46,422 bases of DNA from Candidatus Omnitrophota bacterium (lineage in GTDB: Bacteria > Omnitrophota > Omnitrophia > Omnitrophales > Danuiimicrobiaceae), in the NCBI GenBank assembly GCA_016206945.1, contig JACQQP010000172.1, positions 1-46,422 on the forward strand. The letters run 5' to 3'. The notes under the pieces were generated by a model. The model ran no database searches and was not told the origin of the DNA. It saw nothing but the letters and a program-made list of their open reading frames with translations. Shown here piece by piece: positions 5,019 through 43,016 of this stretch (positions within the stretch are counted from its first letter, which is position 1; each line of letters begins with the position of its first letter). A program made the position numbers and the translations under genes.

Positions 5019-7156
5019 GAATCGCGCAGATTTTACCTGCACTCAATGTGGGTGGAGTTGAGACGGGCACCGTTGATTTAGCCAAGGCGCTGAAGAAACG
5101 GGGTGACGAGCCTTTTGTGATCTCAAATGGGGGACCTTTGGTGGATGAGCTTGTTAAAGCGGGGATTTCTCATTTGACACTCCCCGTACATCGTAAGTCC
5201 CTTACCTCTCTTTCCTTAGTACGCCAAATTCAGGCATTTATTGAACGGGAGCGTATTGATATCCTTCATGCGAGGAGTCGCATTCCCGCTTGGCTCGCCT
5301 ATCTCGCCGTGAGGCGAACCAATTGTGACTTCGTGACGACCTGTCACGGTTATTACTCTAAACATTTTTTCAGCCGTGTCATGGGATGGGGAAAAAAGGT
5401 GATCGTGATTTCTCATTCCATTGGACGGCGGATGATTGACGATTTTGGCGTGCCTCCCGAACGCATTCGATTAATTCATCGAGGTGTCGATCTCGCCCAT
5501 TACCCTTTTTCGGCCGACAAATACAAGAAGCCGAAATCAGGACCGTTTCGTATTATTAATGTTGGGCGAATCACACCCATTAAAGGTCATGGAGATTTTA
5601 TCCGGGCGGTTCATCTTCTTTCAAAACGAATTCACAATTTAGAAGTTTCAATCGTGGGCACGCCTGATGACGATAAGGTTTCCTATTTCCGCAATTTAAA
5701 ACTGATGGTCGAAAGGCTGGGCTTGGGATCGCAGGTGAAGTTTTTAGGAACTCGCCGTGACGTGCCCCAACTCCTGCAATCAGCAGACCTCCTGGTTCTT
5801 CCTTCCAGAATTCCCGAGGCCTTCGGGCGTGTTTTGATTGAGGCGGGTGCAGTAGGAACGGTGGCGATCGCCTCTCGAATCGGGGGGATTTTGGATGTCA
5901 TTGATGAAGGTGAAAACGGTCTTTTGTTTTCCCCAGAGAATTTTGAGGAGATGGCGACTTTGATGGAGAAGATTTTGTTGGACCGCTTGCTCGCGAGAAA
6001 ATTATCTTCCAATCTTCGCAGGAAAGTAGAGCATGAATTTTCGCTCGATCAAATGGTTGAGAAAACGAGTGACGTTTATCGGGAAGTGAAACAGCAAAAA
6101 CGAATTTTGATTACGAAGCTGGGCGCTGTGGGTGATTTGGTACTTGCGACTCCGAGTTTTAGAATGGTGAGAAAACGTTTTCCAAACGCACATATTTCGC
6201 TTTTGGTGGATCCAAAATTGATTCCCTTGGTCCAACGTTGTCCCTATTTTGATGAGATCATTGCCTACAATCGTTCCCACTACTCAGATCAGTGGCAGCG
6301 TTTGTTTAAGTTGAGTAAACGGTTGAGACGATGGGGTTTTGATCTATCGATCGACTTCCAGAACAATTGGAGAACCCATGCGCTTGCGTTCTTAGCAGGC
6401 GTTCCAAAGCGGTATGGTTATAAAAGGGGAATCGCTGGTTTCCTGCTCACTCACCCCGTCGTCTTTTGGGACAGAAGTCTCAGTCCTGTGGAGCATCAAT
6501 TTCAAGTGCTCAAAAGGGCTGGAGTCATCCAATTTGAGAATGCGATCGAACTTTGGCCGGATTCAGAAGCGGATGCTCACATATCAAAACAACTGAGAGA
6601 AGCAAAAAATGGTGCGGCCCCTATTCGCATCGGATTGGTTTTAGGGGCTAGTCCACGCTGGCCAACGAAACAGTGGCCTGTGGAACGTTTTGTGGAACTG
6701 TCCAAGCGCTTAAGGGACGAATTGGATTGTCAGATTGTCTTGATCGGGCGAGAAGAAGACGAGAGTCTGGCACGTGTGTTTAAGCGAGATCATCTAAAGG
6801 GCATTCTCAACTTGACGGGAAAAACGAGTCTGCCGCAATTGGTCAGCCTCGTTAAACAACTTGATCTTTTGGTAACCGGGGACACGGCGCCCCTGCATAT
6901 GGCAAGTGCGTTCGATACAAAAACGGTCGCTTTATTTGGTCCCACAGAACCCAAACGTCATATGCCGCCGGGAGAGGGCCATATCGCTCTTGTGAAACGG
7001 ATTCCCTGTCAGCCTTGCTACAGCGGAACGTGCCGAAATTCGATAAAGCTCCTTTGCCTCAAGGAAATTAGTGTGGACGAAGTTTTTGAAACGATTAAAC
7101 AACAACTTCAGTTGGCAGGGGCTCGGCCTCTCGGCTCAAGCCAGGTGATGGGATAA
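5012..7156 (+). CDS. Fusion of a GT4 glycosyltransferase (N-terminal) with a GT9 heptosyltransferase-family domain (C-terminal)
   Basis: Residues 1-360 look like group-1 GT (GGVETGTVDLAKAL, EAFGRVLIEAGAVGT, ENGLLF). From residue ~365 the protein shows GT9 signatures: KRILITKLGAVGDLVLATPSF, TGDTAPLHMASA and LFGPT. Confidence 0.85.
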   Translation: MLRIAQILPALNVGGVETGTVDLAKALKKRGDEPFVISNGGPLVDELVKAGISHLTLPVHRKSLTSLSLVRQIQAFIERERIDILHARSRIPAWLAYLAVRRTNCDFVTTCHGYYSKHFFSRVMGWGKKVIVISHSIGRRMIDDFGVPPERIRLIHRGVDLAHYPFSADKYKKPKSGPFRIINVGRITPIKGHGDFIRAVHLLSKRIHNLEVSIVGTPDDDKVSYFRNLKLMVERLGLGSQVKFLGTRRDVPQLLQSADLLVLPSRIPEAFGRVLIEAGAVGTVAIASRIGGILDVIDEGENGLLFSPENFEEMATLMEKILLDRLLARKLSSNLRRKVEHEFSLDQMVEKTSDVYREVKQQKRILITKLGAVGDLVLATPSFRMVRKRFPNAHISLLVDPKLIPLVQRCPYFDEIIAYNRSHYSDQWQRLFKLSKRLRRWGFDLSIDFQNNWRTHALAFLAGVPKRYGYKRGIAGFLLTHPVVFWDRSLSPVEHQFQVLKRAGVIQFENAIELWPDSEADAHISKQLREAKNGAAPIRIGLVLGASPRWPTKQWPVERFVELSKRLRDELDCQIVLIGREEDESLARVFKRDHLKGILNLTGKTSLPQLVSLVKQLDLLVTGDTAPLHMASAFDTKTVALFGPTEPKRHMPPGEGHIALVKRIPCQPCYSGTCRNSIKLLCLKEISVDEVFETIKQQLQLAGARPLGSSQVMG

Positions 7157-7209
7157 AAGAGCGCTTTGCTTTGATATTAAGCGCTCTTTTAAACGAGGTG
7201 GTGGGATGA
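7153..7209 (+). repeat. Short SD-box cassette G (hairpin flanked by a direct duplication of the SD box)
   Basis: AGGTGATGGGAT (7143-7154, containing the upstream stop TAA 7154-7156) and AGGTGGTGGGAT (7196-7207, followed by ATG 7206) flank a 10-bp hairpin, AAAAGAGCGC 7155-7164 / GCGCTCTTTT 7181-7190. The right part resembles 19566-19595. Confidence 0.5.
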
Positions 7210-8222
7210 ATATTGCGGTCTTTACGAAGAATTGGTTGGGGGATGTCATTTTTGAAACGCCTGCCATTCGCGCCATTAAGGAAAATTTTCCTGAATCCCA
7301 TTTGATCGCCGTTACGCCTCGACGCTGTGTAGAACTTTTGGAGTTCAATCCTTACGTTGATGAAATCATTGCTTTTGATGAAAAGGAAGATGATAGGAGT
7401 ATGGTTTCGAAATTGAGACTCATTCTTACCTTAAGAAAGCGGAACATTGACAGGGCTTACTTATTTCACCGTTCTTCGACGCGTGCACGGATTGCCTGGC
7501 TGGGTGGAGCGCGTGAGCGGATTGGGTACCAGGTGAAAGGAGGGTCTTTTTTGACGCGCGCCATTCCCGAACAGGAAGGGCCTGTTCATGACGTTCAGTA
7601 TTTTATGGATTTGGTTCGGAACTCCGGCCTTAAAGTAAATGGAGAATATGCTTATGAATTTTATTTTGGGGAAGAAGACGAAGCGCGCGCCAGGTCTTTG
7701 CTTGCGGAATACGGACTTGATTCGGAACGGCTTGTGGCCATCAATCCAGGGGCCAACTGGCCGCCGAAGCGTTGGCCTGCTGAATACTTCCGCGAATTGG
7801 CCGATCGTCTCATCACGCGATACGACGTCCAGATTGTACTTACGGGCAGTGACGAAGATCAGCCCACAATTGAAAGTATTTTAAACTCCCATGATCGTGT
7901 GAACTTAGTTTCAGTCTGTGGAAAAACAACTATACGCCAGCTGGGTGCTTTGTTTTCCATCTGCCGCCTGGTCATTTCGAACGACACAGGTCCGCTTCAT
8001 ATTGCGGCAGGAGTCGGAGCGAACGTTATCGGTCTCTTTGGACCGACCCAACCATTGGAAACAGCTCCTTTGGGCCGCGGACGAAACATCATCATTCATT
8101 ATGCGCCTGAAGGGGTCCCATTGCCGTGGATCGGAAAGGATTTTCCTTCTCCTTGGATGGAACTGATTTCAGTGGAGGACGTATTCAAAGCGATCGAGCA
8201 GGAAAAATTGCTCTCATCATGA
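7206..8222 (+). CDS. GT9 glycosyltransferase (LPS heptosyltransferase family)
   Basis: The motifs NWLGDVIFETPAIRAIK, INPGANWPPKRWP, SNDTGPLHIAAGVG and LFGPT are the canonical GT9 pattern. The ATG follows the GGTGGTGGG box. Confidence 0.85.
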   Translation: MNIAVFTKNWLGDVIFETPAIRAIKENFPESHLIAVTPRRCVELLEFNPYVDEIIAFDEKEDDRSMVSKLRLILTLRKRNIDRAYLFHRSSTRARIAWLGGARERIGYQVKGGSFLTRAIPEQEGPVHDVQYFMDLVRNSGLKVNGEYAYEFYFGEEDEARARSLLAEYGLDSERLVAINPGANWPPKRWPAEYFRELADRLITRYDVQIVLTGSDEDQPTIESILNSHDRVNLVSVCGKTTIRQLGALFSICRLVISNDTGPLHIAAGVGANVIGLFGPTQPLETAPLGRGRNIIIHYAPEGVPLPWIGKDFPSPWMELISVEDVFKAIEQEKLLSS

Positions 8223-9208
8223 TTACCGATAGGGACCGTTTGAAGATTCGAAAAATCCTTGTTATTTCGTTAAGCAATATTGGTGATGTTATTTTGACCA
8301 CGCCGGTTGTTTCAGTTCTTCGCGACCATTTCTCCTCAAGCGAACTTATCGTCATGGTTGGCCCAAAAGGAGCCCCTGTGTTTGAAAATAGTCTCACCGT
8401 AAATGAGGTTCTTGTGTTTGATAAATCGGTTTCGTGGTTTGCGAAACTGATGTTGGTTTGGGAATTAAGGAAAAGAAAATTTGACCTCGTGATCGATCTG
8501 CGGAATACGGCCATCCCCGTTATGATCGGACCGAAATATCGAACCCCACTTTTTGTTGATCGTTCTTCAGTCTCAATGCGCGAAAGGCATTTGGATCGGC
8601 TTCGCTCTCTTATTCCGATCGAACATTCGAGAAATCAATTTAATTTTTTCACCGAAGAAGAAAAGCGATCCATGCAAGCAAAATTAAGCGCGTGCGTCGA
8701 TGGTCCGAAGGGAAATGGTTTTGTTGTGATTGCGCCTGGCGCGGGAAGTGCGCTTAAACAATGGACACTTTCTGGATTCTCTGAGCTCATCGATCATTTT
8801 ATTGGGATGGGAATGCAAATCGTTCTGGTGGGAGATGATCGGGAAGCGGCTTTGGGAAAAGCACTCGAGGACAGAGCTTCGAAGCCCGTTGCCAATTTGG
8901 TCGGAGCGCTTACGTTGAGGGAGTTAGCGGCATTGATTCAGGAGGTCACGCTTGTTGTGGCCAATGATAGTGCGGTGATGCACCTGGCCCACGAGCTTGA
9001 GCGTCCCACCGTTTCCATTTTTGGACCCACGAGTGAACAGAAATATAGTCGTGTCACAAACGGCTATAAAACCGTTCGATTAGATCTCGAGTGCACGCCG
9101 TGTGAACAAGCCCAATGTCGTTTGGAACGGCGCATGTGTTTGGATGATTTGCCCGCAAAACTGGTGATCGATGCTTGTGAAGAGCTTTTGAATGATGCGT
9201 CCCATTGA
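8219..9208 (+). CDS. GT9 glycosyltransferase (LPS heptosyltransferase family)
   Basis: The start is placed at ATG 8219, where ATGA overlaps the upstream stop. Motifs are KILVISLSNIGDVILTTPV, ANDSAVMHLAH and IFGPT. Confidence 0.85.
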   Translation: MITDRDRLKIRKILVISLSNIGDVILTTPVVSVLRDHFSSSELIVMVGPKGAPVFENSLTVNEVLVFDKSVSWFAKLMLVWELRKRKFDLVIDLRNTAIPVMIGPKYRTPLFVDRSSVSMRERHLDRLRSLIPIEHSRNQFNFFTEEEKRSMQAKLSACVDGPKGNGFVVIAPGAGSALKQWTLSGFSELIDHFIGMGMQIVLVGDDREAALGKALEDRASKPVANLVGALTLRELAALIQEVTLVVANDSAVMHLAHELERPTVSIFGPTSEQKYSRVTNGYKTVRLDLECTPCEQAQCRLERRMCLDDLPAKLVIDACEELLNDASH

Positions 9209-11391: not shown

Positions 11392-11393
11392 AG

Positions 11394-12212: not shown

Positions 12213-12214
12213 AC

Positions 12215-13081: not shown

Positions 13082-13114
13082 GTTATTTATTTATAATGGA
13101 TAAGATCAAATTCT

Positions 13115-16584: not shown

Positions 16585-17434
16585 TATTATTTTCGGCGAT
16601 CCAAACCAGTTTGTGTTCATTGCGGGGCCCTGTGTCATCGAAGGAGAAGAGAGCACACTTCGGCATGCCGAGCGAATTTCTAGGATGGTACAAGAACTCA
16701 ATATTCCTTATGTGTTTAAGTCGAGTTACGACAAAGCGAATCGTTCTTCAATCCATTCTTATCGAGGTCCTGGAATTGAGGACGGACTTAAGATTCTTGC
16801 GAAAGTAAAGAAGGAATTTCAAATTCCTGTTTTAAGCGATGTCCATACCGTTGAGGAGGTCGACCGAGCGGCCGAAGTACTCGACATTCTTCAAGTGCCT
16901 GCCTTTCTTTCCCGCCAAACAGATCTCGTCGTTGCCTGTGCAAAGACTCGAAAAATCGTGAATGTGAAAAAAGGACAATTTCTTTCTCCATGGGACATGA
17001 AGAATGTCGTTGAAAAGATTGAGTCGGTTGGAAACAAAAATATTTTATTAACCGAGAGAGGCGCTTCCTTTGGTTATCGGAATTTAGTCAGCGATTTCCG
17101 GTCGATTCCAATTATGCAAGGTTTTGGTTATCCCGTTGTTTTTGATGTGACTCACTCGGTTCAAATCCCGGGCGGTTTAGGACATGCTTCGGGAGGGCAA
17201 GCCGAATTTATTCCTACGTTGGCACGATGTGCCGTTGCGGCCGGGGTGGACGCCGTTTTCATGGAGGTTCATGAAAATCCCAAGGTCGCCAAATCGGATG
17301 GGCCCAATAATTTAGCGCTTTCTGATTTAAAAGATATTCTTCAAGTTTTGAAACGGATTCGTGCAGCAGCACCTTTAGTCAGAGAAGAAACTTCGAAAAG
17401 GAAGCGTTCACTCAAAAAAACGGTGACGGTGTGA
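16562..17434 (+). CDS. kdsA: 3-deoxy-8-phosphooctulonate synthase (Kdo-8-P synthase)
   Basis: The start is at ATG 16562 (MKQVRLGN), inside the track ORF 16526. Motifs are [20 protein letters not shown] and FDVTHSVQ. It has a basic C-terminal tail. Confidence 0.9.
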
Positions 17435-17442
17435 TGGGATGA
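17428..17442 (+). promoter_or_regulatory. Extended SD + start box GGTGTGATGGGATGA (native junction, no cassette)
   Basis: The kdsA stop TGA lies at 17432-17434 inside the box. ATG 17439 starts kdsD. The GTGATGGGATGA core matches 1776-1787. Confidence 0.6.
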
Positions 17443-18404: not shown

Positions 18405-19345
18405 GCAAGACAAGGAAACACCGATTTCTGCTCTACCTTGGTCTTGAAGTGATCAGACACATTGTCTTGGTGCTGCCAAGGTGGCTCAATTTGGCGATCG
18501 CGCGAGCTCTTGGCTTTGCAACCTTCTGGGTTCTTCCCAAGGAACGAGCCAAGACGGTGCGCCATTTGAAGGAAGCTTTTGGCGATGAAAAAACTGAGAG
18601 CGAACTTCGGAAAATCGGCGAGAAGGTTTTTATTCATTTGACTCAGTCTGCAATTGACGTCCTTTGTTTCCCGCGGCTCAATCGTAAGCGCGTAGAGCGC
18701 CTTGTTGATTTGGAGGGCGGCACTGAAAGGCTAGATCGTGCGCTGGCGCGCGGAAATGGCGTGATCGCATTGACAGGTCACATTGGAAACTGGGAACTCT
18801 TGGCTTCGTATTTTCGATTTCTGGGCTATCCAGGACGCTTGGTAGGTCGAAGGATTTATTACGAGCGGTTCGATCAGGTACTAGTTTCGCTTAGAAAGAG
18901 TGCTCTTGTCTCGACCCTTTATCGGGATGAATCTCCACGCCAGGTCTTGGCCGAACTTCGAGCGAACCATGTCGTGGGAATGTCTGCCGACCAGGACATT
19001 GATAGCGTGGAGGGAGTTTTTGTTCCTTTTTTTGGAAAATGGGCTTGGACACCGACAGGTCCAGCAAAAATCGCATTGGCCAGCGGGGCAGCTATTGTTC
19101 CAGCCTTTATGCTTCACGATCGGAATCGATACCGATTATTCATTGAAGAACCTATTTGGCCCGTTGAAAGCGTTTCAAAGGAAAAAGCGATCGGCATGAT
19201 GACGGAGGCTTGGTCTCGAGTCGTTGAAAGTTACATTCGACGTTATCCAGATCAATGGGTTTGGATGCACCGCCGCTGGAAAACCCAGGCGGACGTTGCC
19301 GATCGCTTTAGGGATGCATCAGAACTACAAGAAGTAAAGTTATGA
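18401..19345 (+). CDS. Lipid A biosynthesis late acyltransferase (LpxL/HtrB family)
   Basis: The LTGHIGNWE catalytic motif and the RYPDQWVWMHRRWK C-terminal motif are present. The GTG start overlaps the kdsD stop (GTGTGA). Confidence 0.85.
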   Translation: MSKTRKHRFLLYLGLEVIRHIVLVLPRWLNLAIARALGFATFWVLPKERAKTVRHLKEAFGDEKTESELRKIGEKVFIHLTQSAIDVLCFPRLNRKRVERLVDLEGGTERLDRALARGNGVIALTGHIGNWELLASYFRFLGYPGRLVGRRIYYERFDQVLVSLRKSALVSTLYRDESPRQVLAELRANHVVGMSADQDIDSVEGVFVPFFGKWAWTPTGPAKIALASGAAIVPAFMLHDRNRYRLFIEEPIWPVESVSKEKAIGMMTEAWSRVVESYIRRYPDQWVWMHRRWKTQADVADRFRDASELQEVKL

Positions 19346-19467
19346 TCCCATCTGAAAGAAGAGAACAGAGAACGGTGTACAGAGTACAGAAGATTAGGTC
19401 CCGTTCTTTTTTACTCTGTTCTCTGTACTCTGTTCTCTGTACTCTGTTTCTAGAGGTGATGGGATGA
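19342..19467 (+). repeat. SD-box cassette C (family I, 126 nt) with a 41-codon ATGA-to-ATGA mini-ORF
   Basis: ATG 19342 overlaps the upstream stop (ATGA), and it ends GAGGTGATGGGATGA. The interior has heptamer arrays, ACAGAGW on one arm (about 19364-19391) and the complementary WCTCTGT x5 (19413-19447). It aligns without gaps, at about 80% identity, with 22856-22981. Confidence 0.8.
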
Positions 19468-19595
19468 TCCCAACCACCTGTTTTTCTCGCGTTTCATTCA
19501 GGTGGTTGAACTTTGAAACGCGAGAATTTCTTTCAGAAATTAAAGGCCGCATTAACTTAAAACGAGGCGTTCTTTTAAAACAGGTGGTGGGATGA
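19464..19595 (+). repeat. SD-box cassette F (family III-like, 132 nt) with a 43-codon ATGA-to-ATGA mini-ORF
   Basis: It starts ATGATCCCAACCACCTGTTT and ends AAACAGGTGGTGGGATGA. ATG 19464 overlaps the stop of cassette C, and its own TGA overlaps the lptC ATG 19592. Interleaved inverted repeats are present: 19471-80/19499-508 and 19484-96/19514-26. Confidence 0.65.
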
Positions 19596-22738: not shown

Positions 22739-22741
22739 TTG

Positions 22742-22859
22742 ATGATTCCATCACCTGTTTGCAAAGAGCGCGCATTTGGTTCTAAACATCACGCGCTCTT
22801 TGATCCTTTAAGAAAAGATCTCGCCACAACGTGGCGAGACAAACAGGTGATTGGGATGA
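22742..22859 (+). repeat. SD-box cassette E (family III-like, 118 nt)
   Basis: It starts ATGATTCCATCACCTGTTT and ends AAACAGGTGATTGGGATGA. The 13-bp terminal inverted repeat is interrupted by one extra T. Internal hairpins lie at 22762-72/22792-802 (11 bp) and 22819-25/22833-39 (7 bp). Confidence 0.65.
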
Positions 22860-22981
22860 TCCCATCTGAAAGAAGAGAACAGAGTACAGAGTACAGAGAA
22901 CAGAAGGTGAGTTTCCATTCTTTTTTACTCTGTTCTCTGTCATCAGTACTCTGTAATGTTTTCCTTCAGGTGGTGACATGA
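22856..22981 (+). repeat. SD-box cassette D (family I, 126 nt)
   Basis: It has the same length and frame as 19342-19467. It encodes MIPSERREQSTEYREQKVSFHSFLLCSLSSVLCNVFLQVVT, and its TGA overlaps the yvcK-like ATG 22978. Because of the extra T in cassette E, E and D read as a single 79-codon ORF. Confidence 0.8.
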
Positions 22982-24225
22982 AGTTTTTCCGATGGCTTTA
23001 TCCAGGAATCGGGATTAAACGATGGGTCGTTTTGGCCGCTTTTGGACTTGGCATCATGGTGATTGTGGGCCTTTCTGCGGTGAAGACGATTGCACAACAC
23101 AGCGTCCTTTTGGCAAGTTTTGCCACCGCTTTTCTCATTTTTGGAATTTTTTTGGTTTACACGTCACTTAAAAATGTGGTTCGCATTTTCGTTCGTGCAC
23201 TTATGCCAGAGCCTGCGGAAGACTTGGCGAACATTGTGTATCAAAGTCGAAAGCGGGATTTTCTTGCTCGTGGACCTCGCGTGGTCACCATTGGCGGCGG
23301 CACCGGTTTGAGCGTTCTTCTCCAAGGAATTAAGGCCTATACTAATAACGTCACTGCCGTTGTCACCGTGACCGATACGGGCGGGAGTTCGGGGCGCCTG
23401 CGCGATGAGCTGGATATTCTGCCGCCGGGCGATATTCGCAACTGTCTTGTGGCGCTTGCCGATGCAGAACCGCTGATCCGGAACCTGTTTCAATATCGTT
23501 TTGAAGAGGGAGAAGGTCTTAAAGGACACAGTTTTGGAAACTTGTTCATCACGGCACTTTCCATGGTAACGGGTGACTTTGAAAAAGCGATCCGCGAATC
23601 GAGCAAGGTGCTTGCCATTCGGGGAAGAGTGTTGCCATCCACTCTGGATAAAGTAACGCTCGTAGGCGAATTTACCGATGGGACAACGGCTGAAGGAGAA
23701 ACAAATATCACGGACACAAGGAAACCGCTGAAGCAGATTTCGCTTCGCCCTGCCAATTGTCGCGCTGCAGACGAGGCGTTGGAAGCGATTGAAAGTGCAG
23801 ATCTTGTGATCATGGGGCCAGGGAGTCTTTATACGAGCATTCTCCCTAATCTTTTGATCCAGGATGTTTCGAATGCCATCTTGGAATCGGATGCATACAA
23901 GATTTTCATTATCAATGCGATGACCCAACCTGGTGAAACAGAAGGTTACACCGCTTACGACCACCTCCGCGTTTTGATCAGCCATACGGATCCCGGCATT
24001 GTCGACGCCTGTTTTATCAATACCCAATCCATTCCCAAGGCAATCCTGGAACGTTATCGCGAAACCAATGCGTACCCGGTTGAGGCTGATGTCGCAAAGA
24101 TTCGGGAACAAGGGTATGAGGTCATTGGCTGTGAGATTTTGAAACTGGATTCGCAAGTGAGGCACGATCCGGTGAAACTGGCCAAGGTTATTTTGGATCA
24201 ATATTTTGAAGTCCTGAAGCGGTAA
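22978..24225 (+). CDS. YvcK/CofD-like (UPF0052, gluconeogenesis factor family) protein with an N-terminal two-TM extension
   Basis: The core motif is VVTIGGGTGLSVLLQGIK...VVTVTDTGGSSGRLRDE...PPGDIRNCLVALAD. Residues ~16-63 form two hydrophobic helices that I do not recall in typical ~320-aa YvcK proteins. Confidence 0.85.
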   Translation: MKFFRWLYPGIGIKRWVVLAAFGLGIMVIVGLSAVKTIAQHSVLLASFATAFLIFGIFLVYTSLKNVVRIFVRALMPEPAEDLANIVYQSRKRDFLARGPRVVTIGGGTGLSVLLQGIKAYTNNVTAVVTVTDTGGSSGRLRDELDILPPGDIRNCLVALADAEPLIRNLFQYRFEEGEGLKGHSFGNLFITALSMVTGDFEKAIRESSKVLAIRGRVLPSTLDKVTLVGEFTDGTTAEGETNITDTRKPLKQISLRPANCRAADEALEAIESADLVIMGPGSLYTSILPNLLIQDVSNAILESDAYKIFIINAMTQPGETEGYTAYDHLRVLISHTDPGIVDACFINTQSIPKAILERYRETNAYPVEADVAKIREQGYEVIGCEILKLDSQVRHDPVKLAKVILDQYFEVLKR

Positions 24226-26377: not shown

Positions 26378-27460
26378 ATGCATTCATTGGATCAAATTGA
26401 AAGGATCATGAAGAATGATCGCCAGGATATGGCGAAATCGATTTATGATTTTTCGAAGCAATTAAAGCATGCCGAAGAAATTGGCAAAGCCCTTACTTTG
26501 GATCCAAGCTTGGGCAAGGGTTTGTCCAAAATCGTTTTTTCAGGGCTGGGGGGTTCTGCAATCGGAGCAGATTTCATCCGTTCCTACCTGGCTTACGAAT
26601 TTAAGATTCCAATCTTGGTCAACCGTCATTATCGCCTTCCGGAATATGTGGATGAAACAACCTTATTGATCGTGAGCAGTTATTCAGGGGATACCGAGGA
26701 AACCATATCCTCTCTTAAAGAAGGACTTAAGCGGAAGGCGAGAATCCTTGCCATCAGTTCGGGAGGTGAGCTTGCAAAACAAGCCCGCGAGCGCTCGTTT
26801 CCTTTAATTCAAATCCCAGGCGGTTTTTCTCCGCGGGCCGCATTGGGGTATTCGGTCCTACCGCTTTTGGTCGCTTTGTCCAAATGTGGTTTTTCATCGG
26901 CTTATCGGCCCGCTGAATTTAATGAAGCTCAAGTGTTAACTCAAACGCTTGCGGAATCTGATTACGGAGTCGGTATTCCTTTTGCGAACAATTTAGCGAA
27001 GCAATTTGCGTCGGCTTGTTTTGGGAAGTACCCGGTTATTTACTCCTGTGTTGACTATTTTGATGTCGTAGCGCTCAGGTGGCGCGGACAGATCGAAGAG
27101 AATGCAAAAGCGCTCGCGTCACACCATGTTTTGCCTGAGATGAATCACAATGAGCTCGTTGGGTGGCGATGTCCGAAAGAGCTATTGAAGGGGGCCGTGG
27201 TCTTTTTCCTGCGCGACCGCGCGGATCATGAACGGGTCCAAATCAGAATGGATTTAACCCGAGATATCATTAAACAATCCGCGGGCAAGGTGGTTGAATT
27301 ATTTTCTCAAGGAAAGGGTTTGCTCGCGCGAATGTTCTCCTTGATCCATTTGGGAGATTGGCTGAGTCTTTACCTCGCTGCTTTATATGAAGTGGATCCA
27401 ACACCTGTAGAAGTCGTCCAGCGTCTTAAAGTGGAATTAGCGAAAGAACCCGTTGCATGA
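26378..27460 (+). CDS. Bifunctional phosphoglucose/phosphomannose isomerase (SIS family)
   Basis: The SIS motif GLGGSAIGADF, then SYSGDTEET, and a C-terminal PGI/PMI-type domain with HHVLPEMNHNE are present. Confidence 0.75.
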   Translation: MHSLDQIERIMKNDRQDMAKSIYDFSKQLKHAEEIGKALTLDPSLGKGLSKIVFSGLGGSAIGADFIRSYLAYEFKIPILVNRHYRLPEYVDETTLLIVSSYSGDTEETISSLKEGLKRKARILAISSGGELAKQARERSFPLIQIPGGFSPRAALGYSVLPLLVALSKCGFSSAYRPAEFNEAQVLTQTLAESDYGVGIPFANNLAKQFASACFGKYPVIYSCVDYFDVVALRWRGQIEENAKALASHHVLPEMNHNELVGWRCPKELLKGAVVFFLRDRADHERVQIRMDLTRDIIKQSAGKVVELFSQGKGLLARMFSLIHLGDWLSLYLAALYEVDPTPVEVVQRLKVELAKEPVA

Positions 27461-27522
27461 TCTCCCATCATTTTTTCAATTTGTGGTTCATGCGCTCATC
27501 GCTTCGCGGTGGTGGGGAATGA
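27457..27522 (+). repeat. Minimal SD-box cassette H (66 nt) with a 21-codon ATGA-to-ATGA mini-ORF
   Basis: ATGA at 27457-60 overlaps the PGI/PMI stop. The left end is ATGATCTCCCATCA and the right end is GGTGGTGGGGAATGA, with ATG 27519 starting the next gene. The ends form a degenerate inverted repeat. Confidence 0.45.
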
Positions 27523-30787: not shown

Positions 30788-31882
30788 TCATTCATTAGCG
30801 CGGTCCAGGAAGAAGAACGTTCCAAAACCGAACATAAAATTGGGAGACCAAGTACTCAAAATAGGAAAAAGTTTTCCTGCTTTCCCAAGTGCGAGCAGAA
30901 TAGCGCCCGTAATGTGAAAGAGGAATACAAAGGCAAGACAAGTTAGTACGTTCAAGGCAATCATGCGGCGCCTTGTTGTTTTGGCTAAAAAGGGCACCGT
31001 CAGAAACATAACCACCAAACTTTGCCAGGGAAAGGCAAGTTTTTGATGGAGTGTAACCAACTCGGCATCTGCCTTGATTCCATTTTCCCTGAGTTTCGCA
31101 ATATACTCTTTTAGATCTCGGTAACTGATCGCAATTCCCTCGTTCACAGCTTTCAGGAAATCATTGGGCGTTTCGTTAATCTCTGGGTAAACAATCACGG
31201 CTTGAAACGTGGGTTCGCCCAGCATGTCGCCTTTCTGTTCTAGCGCGTAATCAGTCGCTTGGCGGAGTTCCCAGTGGGAGCCCATCCACTTGGCTTCGCG
31301 AGCCACGGTTTTCTTTTTTACGTTCCTTTTTGCGTCTAGCCAAAGGACAATAAAATCTTCGAACCGTTCTTCTTTTGCGTGGAAAACGCGCCCATAGTAA
31401 AGCCGGTTTTTACCGCCGTAGTAGGTGACGTTTGCGAATACCCCTCGTTTTTCATCCGTTTGCTTCTTTTCAATCCATTCGTTTAAGAGTTGTTCCGCTT
31501 TCCGCGAAGTGTTCGGCACGATTTGGTCGCTCACCAGGAAAGAAATGACGCCAACGACAAATCCAACGAAAATAATGGGTCGAATCATCGAAGTGATTTC
31601 TAAACCTGCAACCTTCATCGCAATGAGTTCGTTGTGGTAATTAAAAGTACTGAGGACATAGATGGTGGCAAGGAGACACGCCCATGGAATTATGGAAATG
31701 AAAGTTTGCGGTGTCAGGACCAAATAATACAGAAGAATATGGTGAAAAGCAGTTTTGTTTCGGATCATCGCGTCCAAGTAGTCAAAAATATCCGCCACGA
31801 ACACCAAGAGAATTAAAGTGACACAACAAAAAAAGATGGGAAATAAAAGCTGTTTTGCAAGATATCGGTCAAGAATCTTCAT
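30788..31882 (-). CDS. LPS export ABC transporter permease (LptF/LptG, YjgP/YjgQ family)
   Basis: MKILDRYLAKQLLFPIFF is the typical N-terminus of this family, and the protein has multiple TM segments with a large periplasmic loop. The start is placed at ATG 31882, immediately after GGAGGTGATGGG, rather than at the track's 31921. Confidence 0.85.
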   Translation of the reverse strand: MKILDRYLAKQLLFPIFFCCVTLILLVFVADIFDYLDAMIRNKTAFHHILLYYLVLTPQTFISIIPWACLLATIYVLSTFNYHNELIAMKVAGLEITSMIRPIIFVGFVVGVISFLVSDQIVPNTSRKAEQLLNEWIEKKQTDEKRGVFANVTYYGGKNRLYYGRVFHAKEERFEDFIVLWLDAKRNVKKKTVAREAKWMGSHWELRQATDYALEQKGDMLGEPTFQAVIVYPEINETPNDFLKAVNEGIAISYRDLKEYIAKLRENGIKADAELVTLHQKLAFPWQSLVVMFLTVPFLAKTTRRRMIALNVLTCLAFVFLFHITGAILLALGKAGKLFPILSTWSPNFMFGFGTFFFLDRANE

Positions 31883-32016
31883 CCCATCACCTCCACGGCA
31901 AGAGCGCGTTTTAAGAGGCAATCTTGCACTCTGAGTGAAGTGCGTTCTTGCATTTTCTTTGAAAATACGCCGCCCATCTTAAGAAAAGGCGGCGTACGGG
32001 GAGGTGATAGGATCAT
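31879..32016 (-). repeat. SD-box cassette A (family II, 138 nt) with an intact 45-codon ATGA-to-ATGA mini-ORF
   Basis: On the minus strand, ATGA (32016-32013) overlaps the comF stop. The left end is GATCCTATCACCTCC and the right end is GGAGGTGATGGGATGA, overlapping the lptF/G start. Two hairpins lie at 31966-74/31988-96 and 31898-907/31942-51. It aligns without gaps, at about 85% identity, with 42879-43016. Confidence 0.85.
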
Positions 32017-32906: not shown

Positions 32907-32939
32907 AAGCGAGGTTTTTTGTAAAAGAAAGGGAGATTT

Positions 32940-34484: not shown

Positions 34485-34486
34485 AC

Positions 34487-36244: not shown

Positions 36245-36255
36245 GGAGTTAAGAC

Positions 36256-37200: not shown

Positions 37201-37214
37201 TCGTCCCTATCTTT

Positions 37215-37709
37215 ATGGAGAAGCGTTACACCTCTGCTCGAAAAGGAAATCACGTCTTTATTAGGAATTGCTCCTCCCGATTTCGCATTAACCCCGAGGC
37301 CGTAGGTCGTTTCGTTCACGGTGTCCTCAAGATACTTCGATTGAAACATACGGCGATCAGTTTTGTCTTTGTTTCAGATACTGAGATTCAGCGTATAAAC
37401 CGCAGGCACTTGGGTCATGATTGGGCGACCGATGTCTTGGCTTTTCCCTATGGAGATTCCATTGGAGCGAGCAAAGTGAATCACGGCCGTTCCTTTCTTG
37501 GCGAAATCATTGTCTCCCCTAGGCAAGCCAAGCTTTATTCGGAAAAGTTTCATTTATCGTTTCACGAAGAATTTGCTCGTTATCTGTGTCATGGAATCCT
37601 TCATTTGAAAGGGTATTCGGATCAATCCGTACGAGCTAAGGCGATCATGGGGAAAGCAGAGGATCACTTGCTCAAAACTTTCGCTCCCGAGATAAAACAC
37701 CTGATCTAA
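37215..37709 (+). CDS. ybeY: rRNA maturation endoribonuclease YbeY
   Basis: The ATDVLAFP motif and the zinc motif HGILHLKGYSD are present. It lies in the conserved phoH-ybeY context. Confidence 0.88.
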   Translation: MEKRYTSARKGNHVFIRNCSSRFRINPEAVGRFVHGVLKILRLKHTAISFVFVSDTEIQRINRRHLGHDWATDVLAFPYGDSIGASKVNHGRSFLGEIIVSPRQAKLYSEKFHLSFHEEFARYLCHGILHLKGYSDQSVRAKAIMGKAEDHLLKTFAPEIKHLI

Positions 37710-37711
37710 CG

Positions 37712-38473: not shown

Positions 38474-38546
38474 GTCATTTATAATAAACCAGTAACGTCG
38501 AATTTCCTACCTCGTTTGACACCCCAAATATCATGTGTTAGCTTTT

Positions 38547-38575
38547 AAGGGAGATTAACCGATCTCTCTTTTTTT
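38547..38575 (+). terminator. Probable intrinsic terminator after recO
   Basis: A 9-bp stem (38547-55 / 38562-70, with one G-U pair) and the 6-nt loop TAACCG are followed by five more T residues (38571-75). Confidence 0.5.
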
Positions 38576-38627
38576 AGGTGGTAAAGACAAGACATTTATA
38601 AAGCTTGATTTACCGAGGGGTGAACGA

Positions 38628-39401
38628 ATGCCACAAGATGAGAGAAGTTACTTTTACTTTGATATCCCAAAGCAAGCGCGGGATTCGGCAATCAGCTATT
38701 TGCTTCACGCGCTTTTAAAGTCGCGCTCGGCATGCCAGTTGCCGTCCAATCAGGATCAATTCGATGAAGATGTGAACATCTATTTGGCGCACCTTCTCTT
38801 TGCCTGTTCACTTCCTGATTACTTAGGAGCAGTAAATCGGTATCTCAGTATGAACGTAAGCGAAATGACAAATCTGATCGAGCAAAATGACGATCGGATT
38901 GTGCGCTATTTTATCTACAAAGTAAATGCGGATCACTTGATGGTGCATTTGGGGATCTTTCAGGATCTTGAAAACGAGCACCGTCTGTTTAGAAAATCGG
39001 AACCTCAATTTTCGAGCATGGCTCAGAGTTACTATCGGCAGGCTGCCAGTTATAACCGTAGGATATATCGGCGCGAGACTGCCATTGGCAGCGTTTTGGA
39101 GAAACTCGCCGTCGGATTTGACCGTTACAAGAGGATCCTTCGCTTTGCCCGTAAGGAATTTTTTCATTTTACGAATCGGTTTCAGGATGAGTCATTTGAA
39201 CAGTTCTGTAACGCGGTAGATCGATATGAAAGAGAGGAACGCCTAAATGGAGCCATTGACCGTTTCCTCGATAGTTATGCCGAATGGCTGAAGGTAAAAG
39301 ACCCGGCGGCACGGTTGAGGTTGATTGATTATGCCAGGGCGCTCCAAAAGTTAGATCCGGAATTTTCATTTAATTTTGAGGGGGAAGCGGAAGCAGCATG
39401 A
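38628..39401 (+). CDS. Hypothetical protein (257 aa), with a C-terminal module shared by the two downstream small ORFs
   Basis: The ATG follows GAGGGGTGA. I recognise no family. It looks helical and charged. Residues 213-246 (FLDSYAEW...LDPEF) align without gaps with both downstream ORFs. Confidence 0.6.
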   Translation: MPQDERSYFYFDIPKQARDSAISYLLHALLKSRSACQLPSNQDQFDEDVNIYLAHLLFACSLPDYLGAVNRYLSMNVSEMTNLIEQNDDRIVRYFIYKVNADHLMVHLGIFQDLENEHRLFRKSEPQFSSMAQSYYRQAASYNRRIYRRETAIGSVLEKLAVGFDRYKRILRFARKEFFHFTNRFQDESFEQFCNAVDRYEREERLNGAIDRFLDSYAEWLKVKDPAARLRLIDYARALQKLDPEFSFNFEGEAEAA

Positions 39402-39604
39402 AAATCTTATCTCGATTTCCGCAAGCGGCAGGGTGTCGACATCGGATGAAAAGGGATGTGGAGGGCCGTTTTCTTGAGCTTTATTCGATGTGGCATGAGA
39501 CACATGACCTTCACTTGAAAAGGCGGCTTTATGCTTCTTTGAATAGGGTGATGCGTCGGATGCCCAACTTCGACTTGAGGCGCCGATTTAAGCAGGCTTT
39601 TTGA
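39398..39604 (+). CDS. Hypothetical small protein (68 aa), paralogous module
   Basis: Its start overlaps the upstream stop (ATGA). Residues 25-58 (FLELYSMW...RMPNF) have the same 34-aa spacing as the upstream C-terminus. Confidence 0.5.
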   Translation: MKILSRFPQAAGCRHRMKRDVEGRFLELYSMWHETHDLHLKRRLYASLNRVMRRMPNFDLRRRFKQAF

Positions 39605-39614
39605 GGCGAATCTT

Positions 39615-39809
39615 ATGAAATCGAATTTTTTAATCCTTTGCCTACAAGATGAGGATGATTTTGAGCAGGAAATGAACCGAAGACAAGACGAGTTTCTGGA
39701 TCTTTTTTCCCTCTACCGCCAAACCGGCCTTTCTTGGATTAAGGAAGAGTTACTATTGAAAGCCTATCAACTTCACCTCCTTGATCCAGAATTTAGATTC
39801 CACTTATAA
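39615..39809 (+). CDS. Hypothetical small protein (64 aa), paralogous module
   Basis: Residues 27-60 (FLDLFSLY...LLDPEF) form the same module. It is the last gene before a consensus promoter. Confidence 0.5.
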   Translation: MKSNFLILCLQDEDDFEQEMNRRQDEFLDLFSLYRQTGLSWIKEELLLKAYQLHLLDPEFRFHL

Positions 39810-39866
39810 GACCAAGCTTCTCAGGCGATCACCTTTCCTCGTACTTCTTTGACCCTTCAGCCCTAT

Positions 39867-39895
39867 TTGACACGGTTAGTTGCGTCTGTTATAAT
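39867..39895 (+). promoter_or_regulatory. Sigma-70-type promoter upstream of the aminotransferase/folK/panC block
   Basis: TTGACA (39867-72), a 17-nt spacer and TATAAT (39890-95) are all perfect consensus. They lie ~60 nt upstream of ATG 39954. Confidence 0.65.
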
Positions 39896-39953
39896 CCGCC
39901 CCTCTTAACTTCTTGCAAGACAATCAATTGCGTTAAAAATCAGAGCCTGAAAG

Positions 39954-41138
39954 ATGAGAAGAACTAGTATTTCAATCGAAGCAGCCGAGAGACTCAAAAA
40001 GCTGCCGCCTTACCTTTTTGCTGAAATCGACCGTCTCAAGCGGGAGTTGACTGCACAGGGTAAGGACGTAATCGACTTGGGAGTTGGAGATCCAGATCTG
40101 GCAACTCCGTCCTTTATAATCGAAGCGCTTTCTGAAGCGGCAAAAAATCCTGTCAACCATCGTTATGCCCTCGATCAAGGGATGCCTGAACTGAGGCGCG
40201 CGATTGCTTCGTGGTACCGGTCGCGCTTCGGTGTAGAACTTAATCCAGATTCGGAGGTGCTTCCTCTCATTGGCTCCAAAGAAGGAATTGGTCACATTCC
40301 GCTTGCTTTGATAAACCCGGGCGATCTGGTGCTCGTTCCAGATCCGGGTTATCCCGTTTACAAATCAGGCACGTACTTTGCCGGCGGTCAACCTCATTTG
40401 CTCGCCCTTTTGGAAGAGAATGATTACCTTGTTGATTTCAGTTCTATTGAAGAAAATATTTTAGAACGAGCGAAACTTCTATTCCTGAATTACCCCAACA
40501 ATCCCACGACAGCGTGTGCGAGTAAGGATTTTTTCACAAGTGCCATTAAAACGGCGCGCGACTGTGGGTTTGTCATATGCCATGATGCCGCCTATACAGA
40601 AATTGCCTACGATGGTTATGAAGCGCCTAGTTTTCTTCAAGCGGAGGGAGCCAAGGAAGTGGGCATTGAGTTTCATTCGCTTTCGAAAACTTTTAATATG
40701 ACGGGCTGGCGTGTGGGCTTCGCCTGTGGGAACGCTAAAATTTTGGAACTTCTTGGAAAAGTGAAGTCCAATTTGGACTCCGGAATTTTTCAAGCGATCC
40801 AATGGGCTGCGGTAAAAGCTCTAGCGAGTGGAAGAGAAGAGGCAAATAAAAATTCAAAAATTTACGAACGCAGGCGGGATCTTTTAGTCGATGGATTAAA
40901 TGCTTTGGGCTGGCGGGTTCCCAAGCCGAAAGCTACTTTTTATGTCTGGGCGCCCGTGCCGCCAGGTTATACGTCGCAGGAACTTGCCGCGCGACTTTTG
41001 AAAGAAGCAAACGTCATTGTCACTCCAGGAAATGGCTTTGGTCCGAATGGGGAAGGCTACTTTCGTATGTCCCTTACCTTGAAAGACGAGCGGATCGAGG
41101 AATCACTCAAGCGGATCAAAAAGCTTCACAGTCGATAA
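39954..41138 (+). CDS. dapL: Class I/II aminotransferase, probably LL-diaminopimelate aminotransferase
   Basis: LPPYLFAEIDRLK...DVIDLGVGDPD is the N-terminal pattern I associate with this DapL subtype. The PLP-lysine motif SLSKTFNMTGWR is present. Confidence 0.7.
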   Translation: MRRTSISIEAAERLKKLPPYLFAEIDRLKRELTAQGKDVIDLGVGDPDLATPSFIIEALSEAAKNPVNHRYALDQGMPELRRAIASWYRSRFGVELNPDSEVLPLIGSKEGIGHIPLALINPGDLVLVPDPGYPVYKSGTYFAGGQPHLLALLEENDYLVDFSSIEENILERAKLLFLNYPNNPTTACASKDFFTSAIKTARDCGFVICHDAAYTEIAYDGYEAPSFLQAEGAKEVGIEFHSLSKTFNMTGWRVGFACGNAKILELLGKVKSNLDSGIFQAIQWAAVKALASGREEANKNSKIYERRRDLLVDGLNALGWRVPKPKATFYVWAPVPPGYTSQELAARLLKEANVIVTPGNGFGPNGEGYFRMSLTLKDERIEESLKRIKKLHSR

Positions 41139-41152
41139 TTGACTTTCCTCCA

Positions 41153-41632
41153 ATGTCCACAATCGCTTTTGTTGGCGTAGGTTCTAACCTTGGGAACCGA
41201 AGGTATTCAGTTGATCAAGCGAAAGAACTTTTGGCTGCTTACCCCACGGTCAGGTTCGTGAGGTCCGCTCCATGTTATGAAACGGAACCTGTGGGCGGTC
41301 CTCTACAGGGTTTGTATTTGAACACTGTTTGGGAAGTCGAGACAGATCTTAGCGCCAAGGAGTTTCTCGCTTTACTCTTGAGCGTGGAATCAAAACTCGG
41401 ACGCACTCGTCTTCAGAAAAATGAACCTCGGCTCATTGACCTTGATCTTTTGTTCTTTGGAGATGAGGTCATCCAGAATTCTGATCTTATCGTGCCACAT
41501 CCGAGACTTCACGAACGGTGGTTTGTCTTAAAACCTCTTTGGGATCTTCGATCCGATTTGATTCATCCCGTTCTCAAGAAAAGTGTCTGTGAATTATTAG
41601 ACCAAGTCAATGCGAGTCATCAAAAGTCCTGA
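41153..41632 (+). CDS. folK: 2-amino-4-hydroxy-6-hydroxymethyldihydropteridine diphosphokinase (HPPK)
   Basis: Motifs are YETEPVG, RLIDLDLL and VPHPRLHERWFVLKPL. Confidence 0.88.
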   Translation: MSTIAFVGVGSNLGNRRYSVDQAKELLAAYPTVRFVRSAPCYETEPVGGPLQGLYLNTVWEVETDLSAKEFLALLLSVESKLGRTRLQKNEPRLIDLDLLFFGDEVIQNSDLIVPHPRLHERWFVLKPLWDLRSDLIHPVLKKSVCELLDQVNASHQKS

Positions 41633-42452
41633 ACATCTGAGCGAGGCTCTTTCGCGTTTTCGGAAACGGGGGAAACAAGTCGGGTTTGTACCCACCATGG
41701 GATATCTTCATGAAGGCCACCTTTTTTTGGTGCGTCGGGCACGAAAGGAAAACGATATTGTGGTAGTCAGTATCTTCGTCAATCCCACTCAGTTCGGCCC
41801 CCACGAAGATTTTAAGCGTTATCCCAGAGATTTAAAACGTGACAGAAAACTTTTGAGGCGAGACCATGTCGATTATTTATTTCTGCCCTCGCGTTCTTCG
41901 ATTTATCCGAAGTATTTTAATGATGTCGTAGATCCTGGACCCTTGGCCCGTTACCTTTGCGGGCCAAAGCGGCCAGGCCATTTTCGCGGAGTTGCAACAG
42001 TGGTGAAACGCCTGTTCAGAATCGTCCACCCCGACAGAGCTTATTTTGGTGAAAAAGATTATCAACAATCAAGAATGATAGAAGCTTTGGTTCAGCGTTT
42101 TCGCATGCCCATTAAAGTTCGAACATGCCCGATTGTTCGTGAAAAGGATGGACTTGCGATGAGCTCACGCAATCGATATCTTTCAAGGCGAGAACGAATC
42201 TCAGCGCGTTCGCTTTACCAATCGCTCCTTCAGGCGAAGAAGTTAATTCGCGCTGGCGAGAGAGATGTAAGTGTGATTAAGAAAATGGCCCGAAGCGTCC
42301 TTCTTCCTTATCTTTCCAAAATCGATTATATTGAGTTAGTTGATCCGGATCAACTAACTCCTCTTAGAAAAGTTCAATCTCGAGTGCTTATAGCCATTGC
42401 TTGTTACGTCGGTTCAACGAGATTGATTGATAATATTCTAGTAAAAGTATAA
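41610..42452 (+). CDS. panC: Pantoate--beta-alanine ligase
   Basis: Motifs are VPTMGYLHEGHLFLV, VSIFVNPTQF and GEKDYQQ. It overlaps folK by 23 nt. Confidence 0.92.
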   Translation: MRVIKSPEHLSEALSRFRKRGKQVGFVPTMGYLHEGHLFLVRRARKENDIVVVSIFVNPTQFGPHEDFKRYPRDLKRDRKLLRRDHVDYLFLPSRSSIYPKYFNDVVDPGPLARYLCGPKRPGHFRGVATVVKRLFRIVHPDRAYFGEKDYQQSRMIEALVQRFRMPIKVRTCPIVREKDGLAMSSRNRYLSRRERISARSLYQSLLQAKKLIRAGERDVSVIKKMARSVLLPYLSKIDYIELVDPDQLTPLRKVQSRVLIAIACYVGSTRLIDNILVKV

Positions 42453-42508
42453 AATAACTATTTTTAGGGAAGCGGAAAGTCATCATTTTTTTAAAATAAG
42501 GTTGCACT

Positions 42509-42859
42509 ATGATCAGACAAATGCTCAAATCCAAGATCCATCGGGCGACAATTACTGAGTCGAACGTCAACTACGAGGGAAGCATCACGATCGACGAAAA
42601 ATTGATGGTGGAAGCCAATATTTTAGATCACGAAAAAGTGTTAATCGCTAATTTGAATAATGGTTCGCGCGTTGAAAGTTATGCCATTACAGGAAAATGG
42701 GGTTCGGGAGTCGTTTGTGCGAATGGGGGCGCAGCCCTTCATAATCAGGTAGGCGACAAGGTACTGATTATGAGTTTTTGTGCTTTAACGGATCGAGAAG
42801 TTAAGAAACATCGTCCGAGGATCGTTAAAGTCGATGAGAAAAACCGCATTATTCGTTAA
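42509..42859 (+). CDS. panD: Aspartate 1-decarboxylase
   Basis: MLKSKIHRATITESNVNYEGSITID includes the Gly-Ser self-cleavage site. Confidence 0.92.
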   Translation: MIRQMLKSKIHRATITESNVNYEGSITIDEKLMVEANILDHEKVLIANLNNGSRVESYAITGKWGSGVVCANGGAALHNQVGDKVLIMSFCALTDREVKKHRPRIVKVDEKNRIIR

Positions 42860-42878
42860 ATGAGAAATGGTTCGTGGA

Positions 42879-43016
42879 TTGATCCCATCACCTCCGCGTA
42901 CGCCGCCTCCTCTTAAGATGGGCGGCGTATGTTTGTAGAAAATGCAAGAGCACGCTTTATTCAGAGTGCAAGATTGCTTCTTTAAGCGTGCTCTTGCGGT
43001 AGAGGTGATGGGATGA
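42879..43016 (+). repeat. SD-box cassette B (family II, 138 nt), with its mini-ORF disrupted
   Basis: The left end is TTGATCCCATCACCTCC and the right end is AGAGGTGATGGGATGA, with ATG 43013 starting nadX. Hairpins lie at 42899-907/42921-29 (9 bp) and 42944-55/42986-97 (12 bp). It is the same length as 31879-32016, but has TTG in place of ATG and an in-frame TAG at 42936-38. Confidence 0.85.

Follow-up and report, generated by a model that had tools for sequence, protein, structure and literature searches.

Mycobacterial interspersed repetitive units (MIRUs) are described as inserting at start codons and containing an internal open reading frame (ORF) which is coupled at -4 (Supply et al. 1997, as summarised in PMC12548453 and PMC3184786). 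They are the closest functional precedent for eight short cassettes (c1 to c8, Table 1) found at gene junctions in contig JACQQP010000172.1 of a Candidatus Omnitrophota bacterium. The whole 46,422-nt stretch that was analysed is referred to below as the window. It carries a lipopolysaccharide/Lpt gene cluster, its GC content is ~47%, and all relatives of its proteins are from Omnitrophica/Omnitrophota. An initial annotation of this DNA knew of no described element with such an architecture; the MIRU, which combines start-codon insertion with a coupled internal ORF as PMC12548453 describes it, is a functional precedent. The cassettes are very probably transposable elements of the miniature inverted-repeat type (MITEs) with MIRU-like logic, and are real rather than an artefact.

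According to the same accounts, MIRUs are also short intercistronic repeats which appear to be inserted at a start codon, the ends of their ORFs overlap the neighbouring stop and start codons at -4, and this overlap is considered to minimise the cost of insertion; empty and filled sites with short direct repeats are likewise described. As far as these accounts go, MIRUs are mycobacterial; their units, of 40-100 bp, are arranged in variable-number tandem repeat arrays, and any inverted repeats in them are imperfect. The Omnitrophota elements differ in having perfect terminal inverted repeats (TIRs) of 11-17 bp which consist of a Shine-Dalgarno (SD) sequence and its complement, and in having a 3-nt target duplication. 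They also have dozens of unrelated interiors, occur in both orientations, and follow a triplet-dependent frame rule; this comparison is one of descriptions.

Classical MITEs (Correia/CREE, ERIC, Nezha, RUP and BOX, among others; PMC3184786) resemble the Omnitrophota elements in being small, having TIRs and a target duplication, and lacking a transposase, and also in their long RNA hairpins, many copies and empty/filled polymorphism. Literature searches found no described Omnitrophota MITE, and no MITE with an SD sequence as its TIR. In agreement with these searches, we know of no classical MITE described as confined to start codons, as having SD/anti-SD TIRs or as having frame-fixed lengths.

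Two other systems share single features. Neisseria REP2 (together with related Borrelia repeats) is a repeat which brings a ribosome-binding site as well as an ATG; it differs in having no TIRs, in carrying a promoter and 5' untranslated region, and in having no intercistronic stop/start relay. Insertions of Rickettsia palindromic elements fall inside ORFs, and the elements end up as part of the protein. Like some of the elements described here (the TGG class, below), they are palindromic mobile elements lying inside translated sequence with the frame kept; the difference is that most Omnitrophota copies terminate on a regenerated stop/start overlap. In bicistronic designs, and in termination-reinitiation coupling generally, the 3' end of a leader ORF holds the SD of the gene and its stop codon overlaps the start codon (PMC6728339; PMC12548453). 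There, a translating ribosome clears an inhibitory structure and hands over to the gene. Bicistronic designs are engineered and static, whereas the Omnitrophota version would be transposon-borne and remade by the insertion itself.

As to the enzymatic origin of the elements, the PIF/Harbinger-IS5 superfamily of transposons, together with its Tourist-like MITEs, is characterised by target duplications of 3 bp and TNA/TWA type (PMC4482050). The Omnitrophota duplications are also of 3 bp and mostly TGA, TAA or TTA. They differ in including TGG/CCA (12 copies), CGA, CAA and GGG; TGG/CCA and CGA do not fit TNA. The TIR TCCCAYCACCT is presumably unlike the ends of the IS5 family. The TNA-like duplication is thus only a lead towards PIF/Harbinger-IS5, offered by analogy.

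Inverted repeats, target duplication and empty sites

The box AGGTGRTGGGATGA has 8 matches in the window at no more than one mismatch, where shuffled sequences give an expectation of 0.01, and the count of the left-end word is above that of every shuffle. Repeat detection recovered family A (19342-19467 and 22856-22981, 83% identity), family B (31879-32015 and 42880-43016, 86% identity, inverted) and family C (7153-7209 and 19539-19595, 74% identity). Family C comprises c3 and the truncated c1; family D is c4. The two tandem pairs, c2+c3 and c4+c5, each join different families which share one TGA, and are not single-unit arrays. No Rfam family matched the window at gathering score, and a tRNA scan of the window found none. 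The claim that all eight cassettes have common termini is sound overall; it fails for 7153-7209, which has no left terminus, and for 27457-27522, the ends of which are degenerate.

Orthologous loci of relatives (L numbers) were retrieved through YvcK, GT9 and NadX homologues. In the window, the junction between the acyltransferase gene and lptC reads ATGA, c2, TGA, c3, TGA. In relatives it reads ...GTATGATTAAA or ...CTCATGACCCG, which is a plain ATGA overlap. This site is empty in L001, L003 and L236, as are the junctions between the PGI-like and nucleotidyltransferase genes and between the PRTase gene and lptF/G, where relatives have a plain ATGA or TGAnATG; c6 is an insertion relative to these three loci. 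Upstream of yvcK, the site is empty in L003 and L236 (TAGGCATGAAA) and holds one different element with a perfect 16-bp TIR in L001. In a 94%-identical relative (L233-L235) it holds a family-C element, a family which in the window is found at lptC instead. Upstream of nadX, L111 is empty (AGCATGATTCAG) and L112 has yet another element at exactly that ATGA. The TGA triplet is present twice, once on either side, at every filled site, and once at every empty site. Copies of the motif number one (L001, L002) or zero (L003-L005) in the 20-kb loci of relatives and five in the homologous part of the window. The empty sites bear out the proposal that the cassettes are inserted into (A/T)TGA start/stop junctions and that the junction is remade on both sides.

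In the closest relative (94% YvcK identity), three independent metagenome contigs all start inside the element upstream of yvcK (L233:1-97, L234:1-68 and L235:1-97). The repeats appear to break short-read assemblies.

The family extends far beyond the window. To guard against circularity, public genomes were searched with a pattern in which only the two 11-nt ends were fixed and the flanks were left free (TCCCAYCACCT N{85,115} AGGTGRTGGGA). Among the matches listed, a limit which applies to all counts of copies below, there were at least 103 such stretches, almost all in Omnitrophota metagenome-assembled genomes (MAGs); the GC content of these, taken from the figures in MAG names, ranges from ~44% to 67%. 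A second, independent scan covered a shorter length class (N{54,84}) in JGI metagenomes, and the two scans together gave at least 238 unique elements. The further copies expected of a large MITE-like family were therefore found, in public genomes and in metagenomes. At least 11 perfect-ended copies are present in a single MAG (JACQRE01), and eight copies in the 46-kb contig studied here. Viral contigs gave no match to the pattern, and hence no sign of carriage by phage.

Some element-bearing MAG records (for example L007, L012, L013, L018 and L021) are labelled Planctomycetales/Planctomycetia or Elusimicrobia. Either these are mislabelled Omnitrophota bins or the family reaches neighbouring PVC-group phyla.

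The flanking 3 nt are identical on both sides in 192 of the 238 unique elements, compared with ~3.7 expected. The most frequent flank is TGA/TCA (161 copies), followed by TGG/CCA and TAA/TTA (12 each) and a few others including CGA, CAA and GGG. Judged from these flanks, the triplet is a target-site duplication with a strong preference for TGA. Perfect TIRs have a median length of 16 bp (153 copies); those of c3, c4, c7 and c8 are 11-19 bp. The Y and R positions of the paired ends agree in 149/153 copies. Once the TIRs were trimmed, 91 copies fell into 57 unrelated interior clusters, in keeping with the shared ends and unrelated interiors first noticed in the window. Elements are 60-140 nt in size, and the only frames inside them are ORFs of 21-47 codons with unrelated sequences. 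TIRs which reach the element ends, a target duplication, small size without a transposase, many copies and presence/absence polymorphism together make it very probable that the cassettes are MITEs, and this structure points to transposition as the way in which they have spread.

Start codons, reading frame and a proposed relay

The insertion site is a start codon plus A (NTG-A), often an ATGA overlap with the stop codon of the upstream gene. Of 160 reconstructed empty sites, 131 have A before TGA, 18 have G, 7 have T and 4 have C, an order which matches that of start-codon usage. Nothing else is conserved within 12 nt on either side beyond position -1. An ORF of 60 codons or more starts at the regenerated ATG in 77/91 copies of the longer length class and 51/57 of the shorter, and the left TGA ends a long ORF in 58/91 and 28/56, respectively. 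The TGG-class sites read ATGG (10), GTGG (1) and CTGG (1), and half of the TAA class lies on TAATG stop/start overlaps. Because only 4 nt are constrained and position -1 tracks start-codon usage, the evidence favours survival of such insertions over targeting as the cause of the restriction to start codons. Different elements have independently struck the same start codon in three lineages upstream of yvcK and in two upstream of nadX; these recurrent hits are compatible with targeting and with survival alike.

The TAA-flanked copies L091, L138, L192, L217, L218 and L227 are often on TAATG, and usually have TA before the triplet (TATAA). TATAA/TAATG may be a second preferred target context.

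The lengths of the elements are constrained by reading frame. In the TGA class, 128 of 161 copies have an ATGA-to-ATGA distance of 2 mod 3 (p = 3e-33), so that the mini-ORF opened by the old start codon stops on the regenerated ATGA. Element lengths form a ladder of 110, 113, 116 ... 140 in 3-nt steps, variants assigned to one cluster vary in length by 3 or 12 nt, and 50 of the 57 clusters obey the rule. The frame of the old start is open to the right TGA in 78/91 copies, and the other frames in 0-54/91. The rule holds both where the left TGA closes a long ORF (52/58) and where it does not (30/33). In the TGG class, in which no stop codon is regenerated, the distance is 0 mod 3 in 10/12 copies (Fisher p = 3e-7 against the TGA class). 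In five of these (L117, L125, L132, L152 and L158) the left-ATG ORF runs uninterrupted into the gene, which gains 27-30 codons. The TAA class, in which the left start codon is absent, provides an internal control: it has no frame preference (6/4/2). Copies with imperfect ends, obtained as by-catch, have a 2 mod 3 spacing in 17/24 cases.

The N-terminal extensions of 27-30 residues in the TGG class begin MVPPP.

Within the window, the initial annotation was right that five mini-ORFs are complete (c2, c3, c5, c6 and c7) and that c4 runs into its neighbour c5 in frame. Copy c4 alone breaks the frame rule; since the 80-codon ORF of c4+c5 ends on the ATGA of yvcK, the relay would be kept. The mini-ORF peptides have in common only their translated TIRs, MIP(P/S)P ... 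(Q/E)V(V/M)G. What is conserved would thus be translation through the element and not its product. The earlier suggestion of a translational-coupling device gains strong comparative support from the frame rule, although its basis is a comparison of sequences. The mini-ORF is likely to act as a translation relay.

The element proper is TCCCAYCACCT...AGGTGRTGGGA, and its insertion duplicates 3 nt, usually the TGA of an NTG-A start codon. The left TGA copy leaves both the upstream stop and the old start codon in place, and the old start opens a mini-ORF reading M-I-P-(P/S)-P.... At the right end, the last A of the element and the duplicated TG make up a new ATG for the gene, 5 nt after the SD (AGGTGRT) carried by the right TIR. 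From this anatomy a mechanism can be proposed. In mRNA the TIRs are expected to pair, burying this SD and the AUG. Ribosomes which start at the old start codon, either alone or coupled to the upstream gene, would translate the element and melt the hairpin. They would then end at the UGA within the rebuilt AUGA and reinitiate translation at the gene, aided by the exposed SD. The outcome would be that the translational input of the gene is preserved.

Our overall reading is that Omnitrophota harbour a large superfamily of non-autonomous TIR transposons not reported before, that the cassettes are members of it, and that it works by such a relay; we put the probability of this reading at about three in four. 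Four points weigh against it. A search of ~0.9 Mb of retrieved loci revealed no autonomous element bounded by these ends, and no transposase candidate was recovered; the search covered pairs of such ends at a spacing of 220-5000 bp, ends without a partner, and complements of the 18-nt arms up to 4 kb away, and every long pair of ends (>220 bp apart) resolved into separate MITEs. The search patterns demanded perfect 11-nt ends and may therefore enrich for ends under selection, overstating the start-codon bias; 19 of the 24 imperfect by-catch copies precede a long ORF, which lessens this concern without removing it. The frame rule is weaker in the shorter length class (40/62). Finally, the mini-ORF of c8 has a TTG start and an internal TAG, so that the relay is not obligatory everywhere; c8 may rely on direct initiation.

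If the relay operates, a selfish element does almost no harm even when it inserts into the few most sensitive bases of a gene, since it provides a replacement SD and start codon and a frame which hands on ribosomes. The elements would be a natural and portable counterpart of the engineered bicistronic design, and the triplet-dependent frame switch would be unusually clean comparative evidence for termination-reinitiation coupling in an uncultivated phylum. In practice, the elements yield spurious small ORFs, wrong start calls and added N- or C-terminal peptides. Omnitrophota strains could be told apart by them, in the way that MIRUs are used as markers of mycobacterial strains.

A bolder reading is held here tentatively, as somewhat less probable than its opposite. 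It states that the element ends have been shaped by the ribosome as much as by a transposase, that insertion is actively directed to start codons, and that the elements are a mobile bicistronic design partly co-opted by the host, forming an undescribed class spread across the phylum. If this were true, operon genes in an SD-poor genome would gain a strong ribosome-binding site gated by upstream translation, and solo right ends, such as those at waaA/lpxK and terminating the GT4-GT9 gene, would have been retained in domesticated form, as SDs and C-terminal tails.

Alternative explanations

The most serious alternative accepts that the cassettes are MITEs and dispenses with the relay: the frame rule would reflect avoidance of harm, the hairpin would act at the RNA level, and the gene would use the SD of the element directly. 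It bears on how the SD is presented. The sequence GGAGGTGAT is complementary to the 3' end of 16S rRNA as generally known, rather than as read from an Omnitrophota 16S; no 16S 3' end was present in any fetched locus. Native starts in the window have a median match of 4 nt to AAGGAGGTGATC, and none reaches 6 nt, compared with 4-9 nt, median 6, at starts supplied by an element or box. The SD in the right TIR is therefore stronger than that of native genes, as direct use would have it. The gene after c8 is intact although the c8 mini-ORF is broken, and TAA-class copies with no left start codon still precede genes at TAATG junctions. Correia and ERIC elements, moreover, act through RNA processing or stability (PMC3184786, as context). 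Against this, the predicted fold of each of six window copies is a single long hairpin whose closing stem is formed by the TIRs (-53 to -76 kcal/mol, z -6.0 to -10.7). The predicted stem covers AGGUGRUGGGA up to the A of AUG, and a hairpin of this stability should block direct 30S binding, and so direct initiation, unless it is opened by a ribosome. Termination exactly on AUGA in 128/161 copies is the geometry of termination-reinitiation, which goes beyond avoidance. The switch to an in-frame fusion where no stop is regenerated implies that ribosomes from the old start reach the right end. Direct use without a relay is accordingly improbable, though it carries more weight than any alternative below.

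Native genes in the window have a weak SD or none, and ATGA or GTGA overlaps link many of them, a pattern which suggests that the host relies heavily on translational coupling or on SD-independent initiation.

Derivation from IS200/IS605-type elements (PATE-like or REP-like), moved as a single strand by a Y1 HUH transposase at a fixed word such as TTGAT, was raised by the initial annotation, and is very unlikely. The nearly fixed (A/T)TGAT flank and the highly palindromic nature of the elements are in its favour. In IS200/IS605 elements no target duplication is known, subterminal hairpins take the place of TIRs, and insertion has a single orientation with respect to the target word. Here, by comparison, perfect inverted repeats, with a median length of 16 bp, extend to the very ends of the elements. 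The triplet is present as a duplicate to the left and right, identical in each element, and is variable (from TGA to TGG/CCA, TAA/TTA, CGA, CAA and GGG); the supposed fixed TGAT is the TGA duplication followed by the T with which the TIR begins. With respect to the TGA strand, related copies are found in both orientations (9/51 related pairs are opposite). With perfect terminal repeats and a variable 3-nt duplication, the analogy does not hold.

Equally hard to sustain is the view that the mini-ORFs are genes for functional small proteins (MIPPP...QVVG peptides). The frame is indeed open in 79/91 copies, and both peptide ends, MIP(P/S)P and (Q/E)V(V/M)G, show conservation. These conserved ends are, however, translated TIRs, and what lies between them is Arg-rich, of low complexity and subject to length changes of whole codons. 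The 57 unrelated interior clusters tell against a conserved peptide product, and one element family is open in both orientations, giving unrelated peptides.

Ordinary conserved spacers or regulatory leaders, vertically inherited and immobile, might be suspected from cassettes which are situated within operons, at fixed junctions between genes, and contain SD sequences. This view is already refuted by the precise empty ATGA junctions of relatives with 86-89% identical YvcK. It is also contradicted by unrelated elements at the same junction in other lineages and by the hundreds of copies, with their 3-nt duplications, found at unrelated genes throughout the phylum.

Individual elements and neighbouring genes

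The elements and boxes of the window are listed in Table 1. The flanking-gene identities given in the initial annotation agree with Pfam, and its overlaps with upstream stop codons at 19343-45, 27458-60 and 32013-15 are correct.

Table 1. Positions and properties of elements and solo right-end boxes in the window. Spans of complete elements run from ATGA to ATGA.
Feature	Position	Strand	Family	Properties
Solo right-end box AAGGTGATGGGATGA	1773..1787	+		waaA/lpxK junction; encodes ...KVMG-stop; SD and ATG for lpxK
Solo right-end box AGGTGATGGGATAA	7143..7156	+		adjoins c1 on its 5' side
c1, truncated element	7157..7209	+	C	right half of family C (inner hairpin and right TIR); supplies SD and ATG of GT9 gene (7206)
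c2	19342..19467	+	A	element proper 19346-19464; TGA at 19343-45 and 19465-67; left TGA is stop of lipid A acyltransferase gene; mini-ORF 41 codons; spacing 122 (2 mod 3); predicted fold -56.8 kcal/mol, z = -6.0
c3	19464..19595	+	C	tandem with c2, common TGA; 19-bp TIR ATCCCAnCACCTGTTTT; right end is SD and ATG of lptC (19592); mini-ORF 43 codons; predicted fold z = -6.6
c4	22742..22859	+	D	TIR TTCCATCACCTGTTTG / CAAACAGGTGATTGGGA; spacing 114 (0 mod 3), ORF passes in frame into c5; predicted fold z = -9.5
c5	22856..22981	+	A	second copy of family A; right end degenerate (GGTGGTGACATGA) and is ATG of yvcK-like gene (22978); predicted fold z = -6.6
Proposed fused relay ORF across c4 and c5	22739..22981	+		80 codons; end is yvcK ATGA
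c6, short degenerate element	27457..27522	+		ends TCTCCCATCA / GGTGGTGGGGA; before nucleotidyltransferase gene; mini-ORF 21 codons, ATGA to ATGA
c7	31879..32016	-	B	order DZR/PRTase gene (stop 32013-15), c7, lptF/G (start 31882); mini-ORF 45 codons; SD GGAGGTGAT; predicted fold z = -8.5
c8	42879..43016	+	B	left flank TTGA; right end is SD and ATG of aspartate dehydrogenase gene nadX (43013); predicted fold z = -10.7

Two of the cassettes are atypical. The truncated c1 can be aligned to the rightmost ~50 nt both of c3 and of the element in L233; it has no left TIR, and its predicted fold consists of the inner hairpin only. The fold of c6 is not significant (z = -0.03), and its membership of the family is probable but weak.

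Two solo right-end boxes (AGGTGATGGGAT[G/A]A), at 1773-1787 and 7143-7156, have no element body and encode the last codons ...VMG-stop of the gene before them. They may be remnants of old elements which have been kept as an SD or as a protein tail. The box at 7143-7156 encodes the C-terminal ...QVMG-stop of the GT4-GT9 fusion protein. The C-terminal tails of this protein differ in all three relatives; a similar box is found in L109 (GAGGTGGTGGAGTGA) and none in L110. The waaA/lpxK box had been taken for a native junction. It is missing in L109, which has a plain ATGA, and in L110, which has TAAtcatATGA; it is lineage-specific and probably an element remnant. The box at the kdsA/kdsD junction (17428-17442), which had been read as the same kind of signal, is ordinary sequence; its homology with the junction of relatives rules it out as an element end.

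In the YvcK/CofD-like protein (22978-24225), ~100 residues precede the CofD domain, which starts at residue 102. The length of the protein including this N-terminal extension (415 aa) is kept among relatives. Between 5012 and 12212, the GT4-GT9 fusion gene is followed by five successive GT9 heptosyltransferase-like genes, and the same run is found in L109 and L110.

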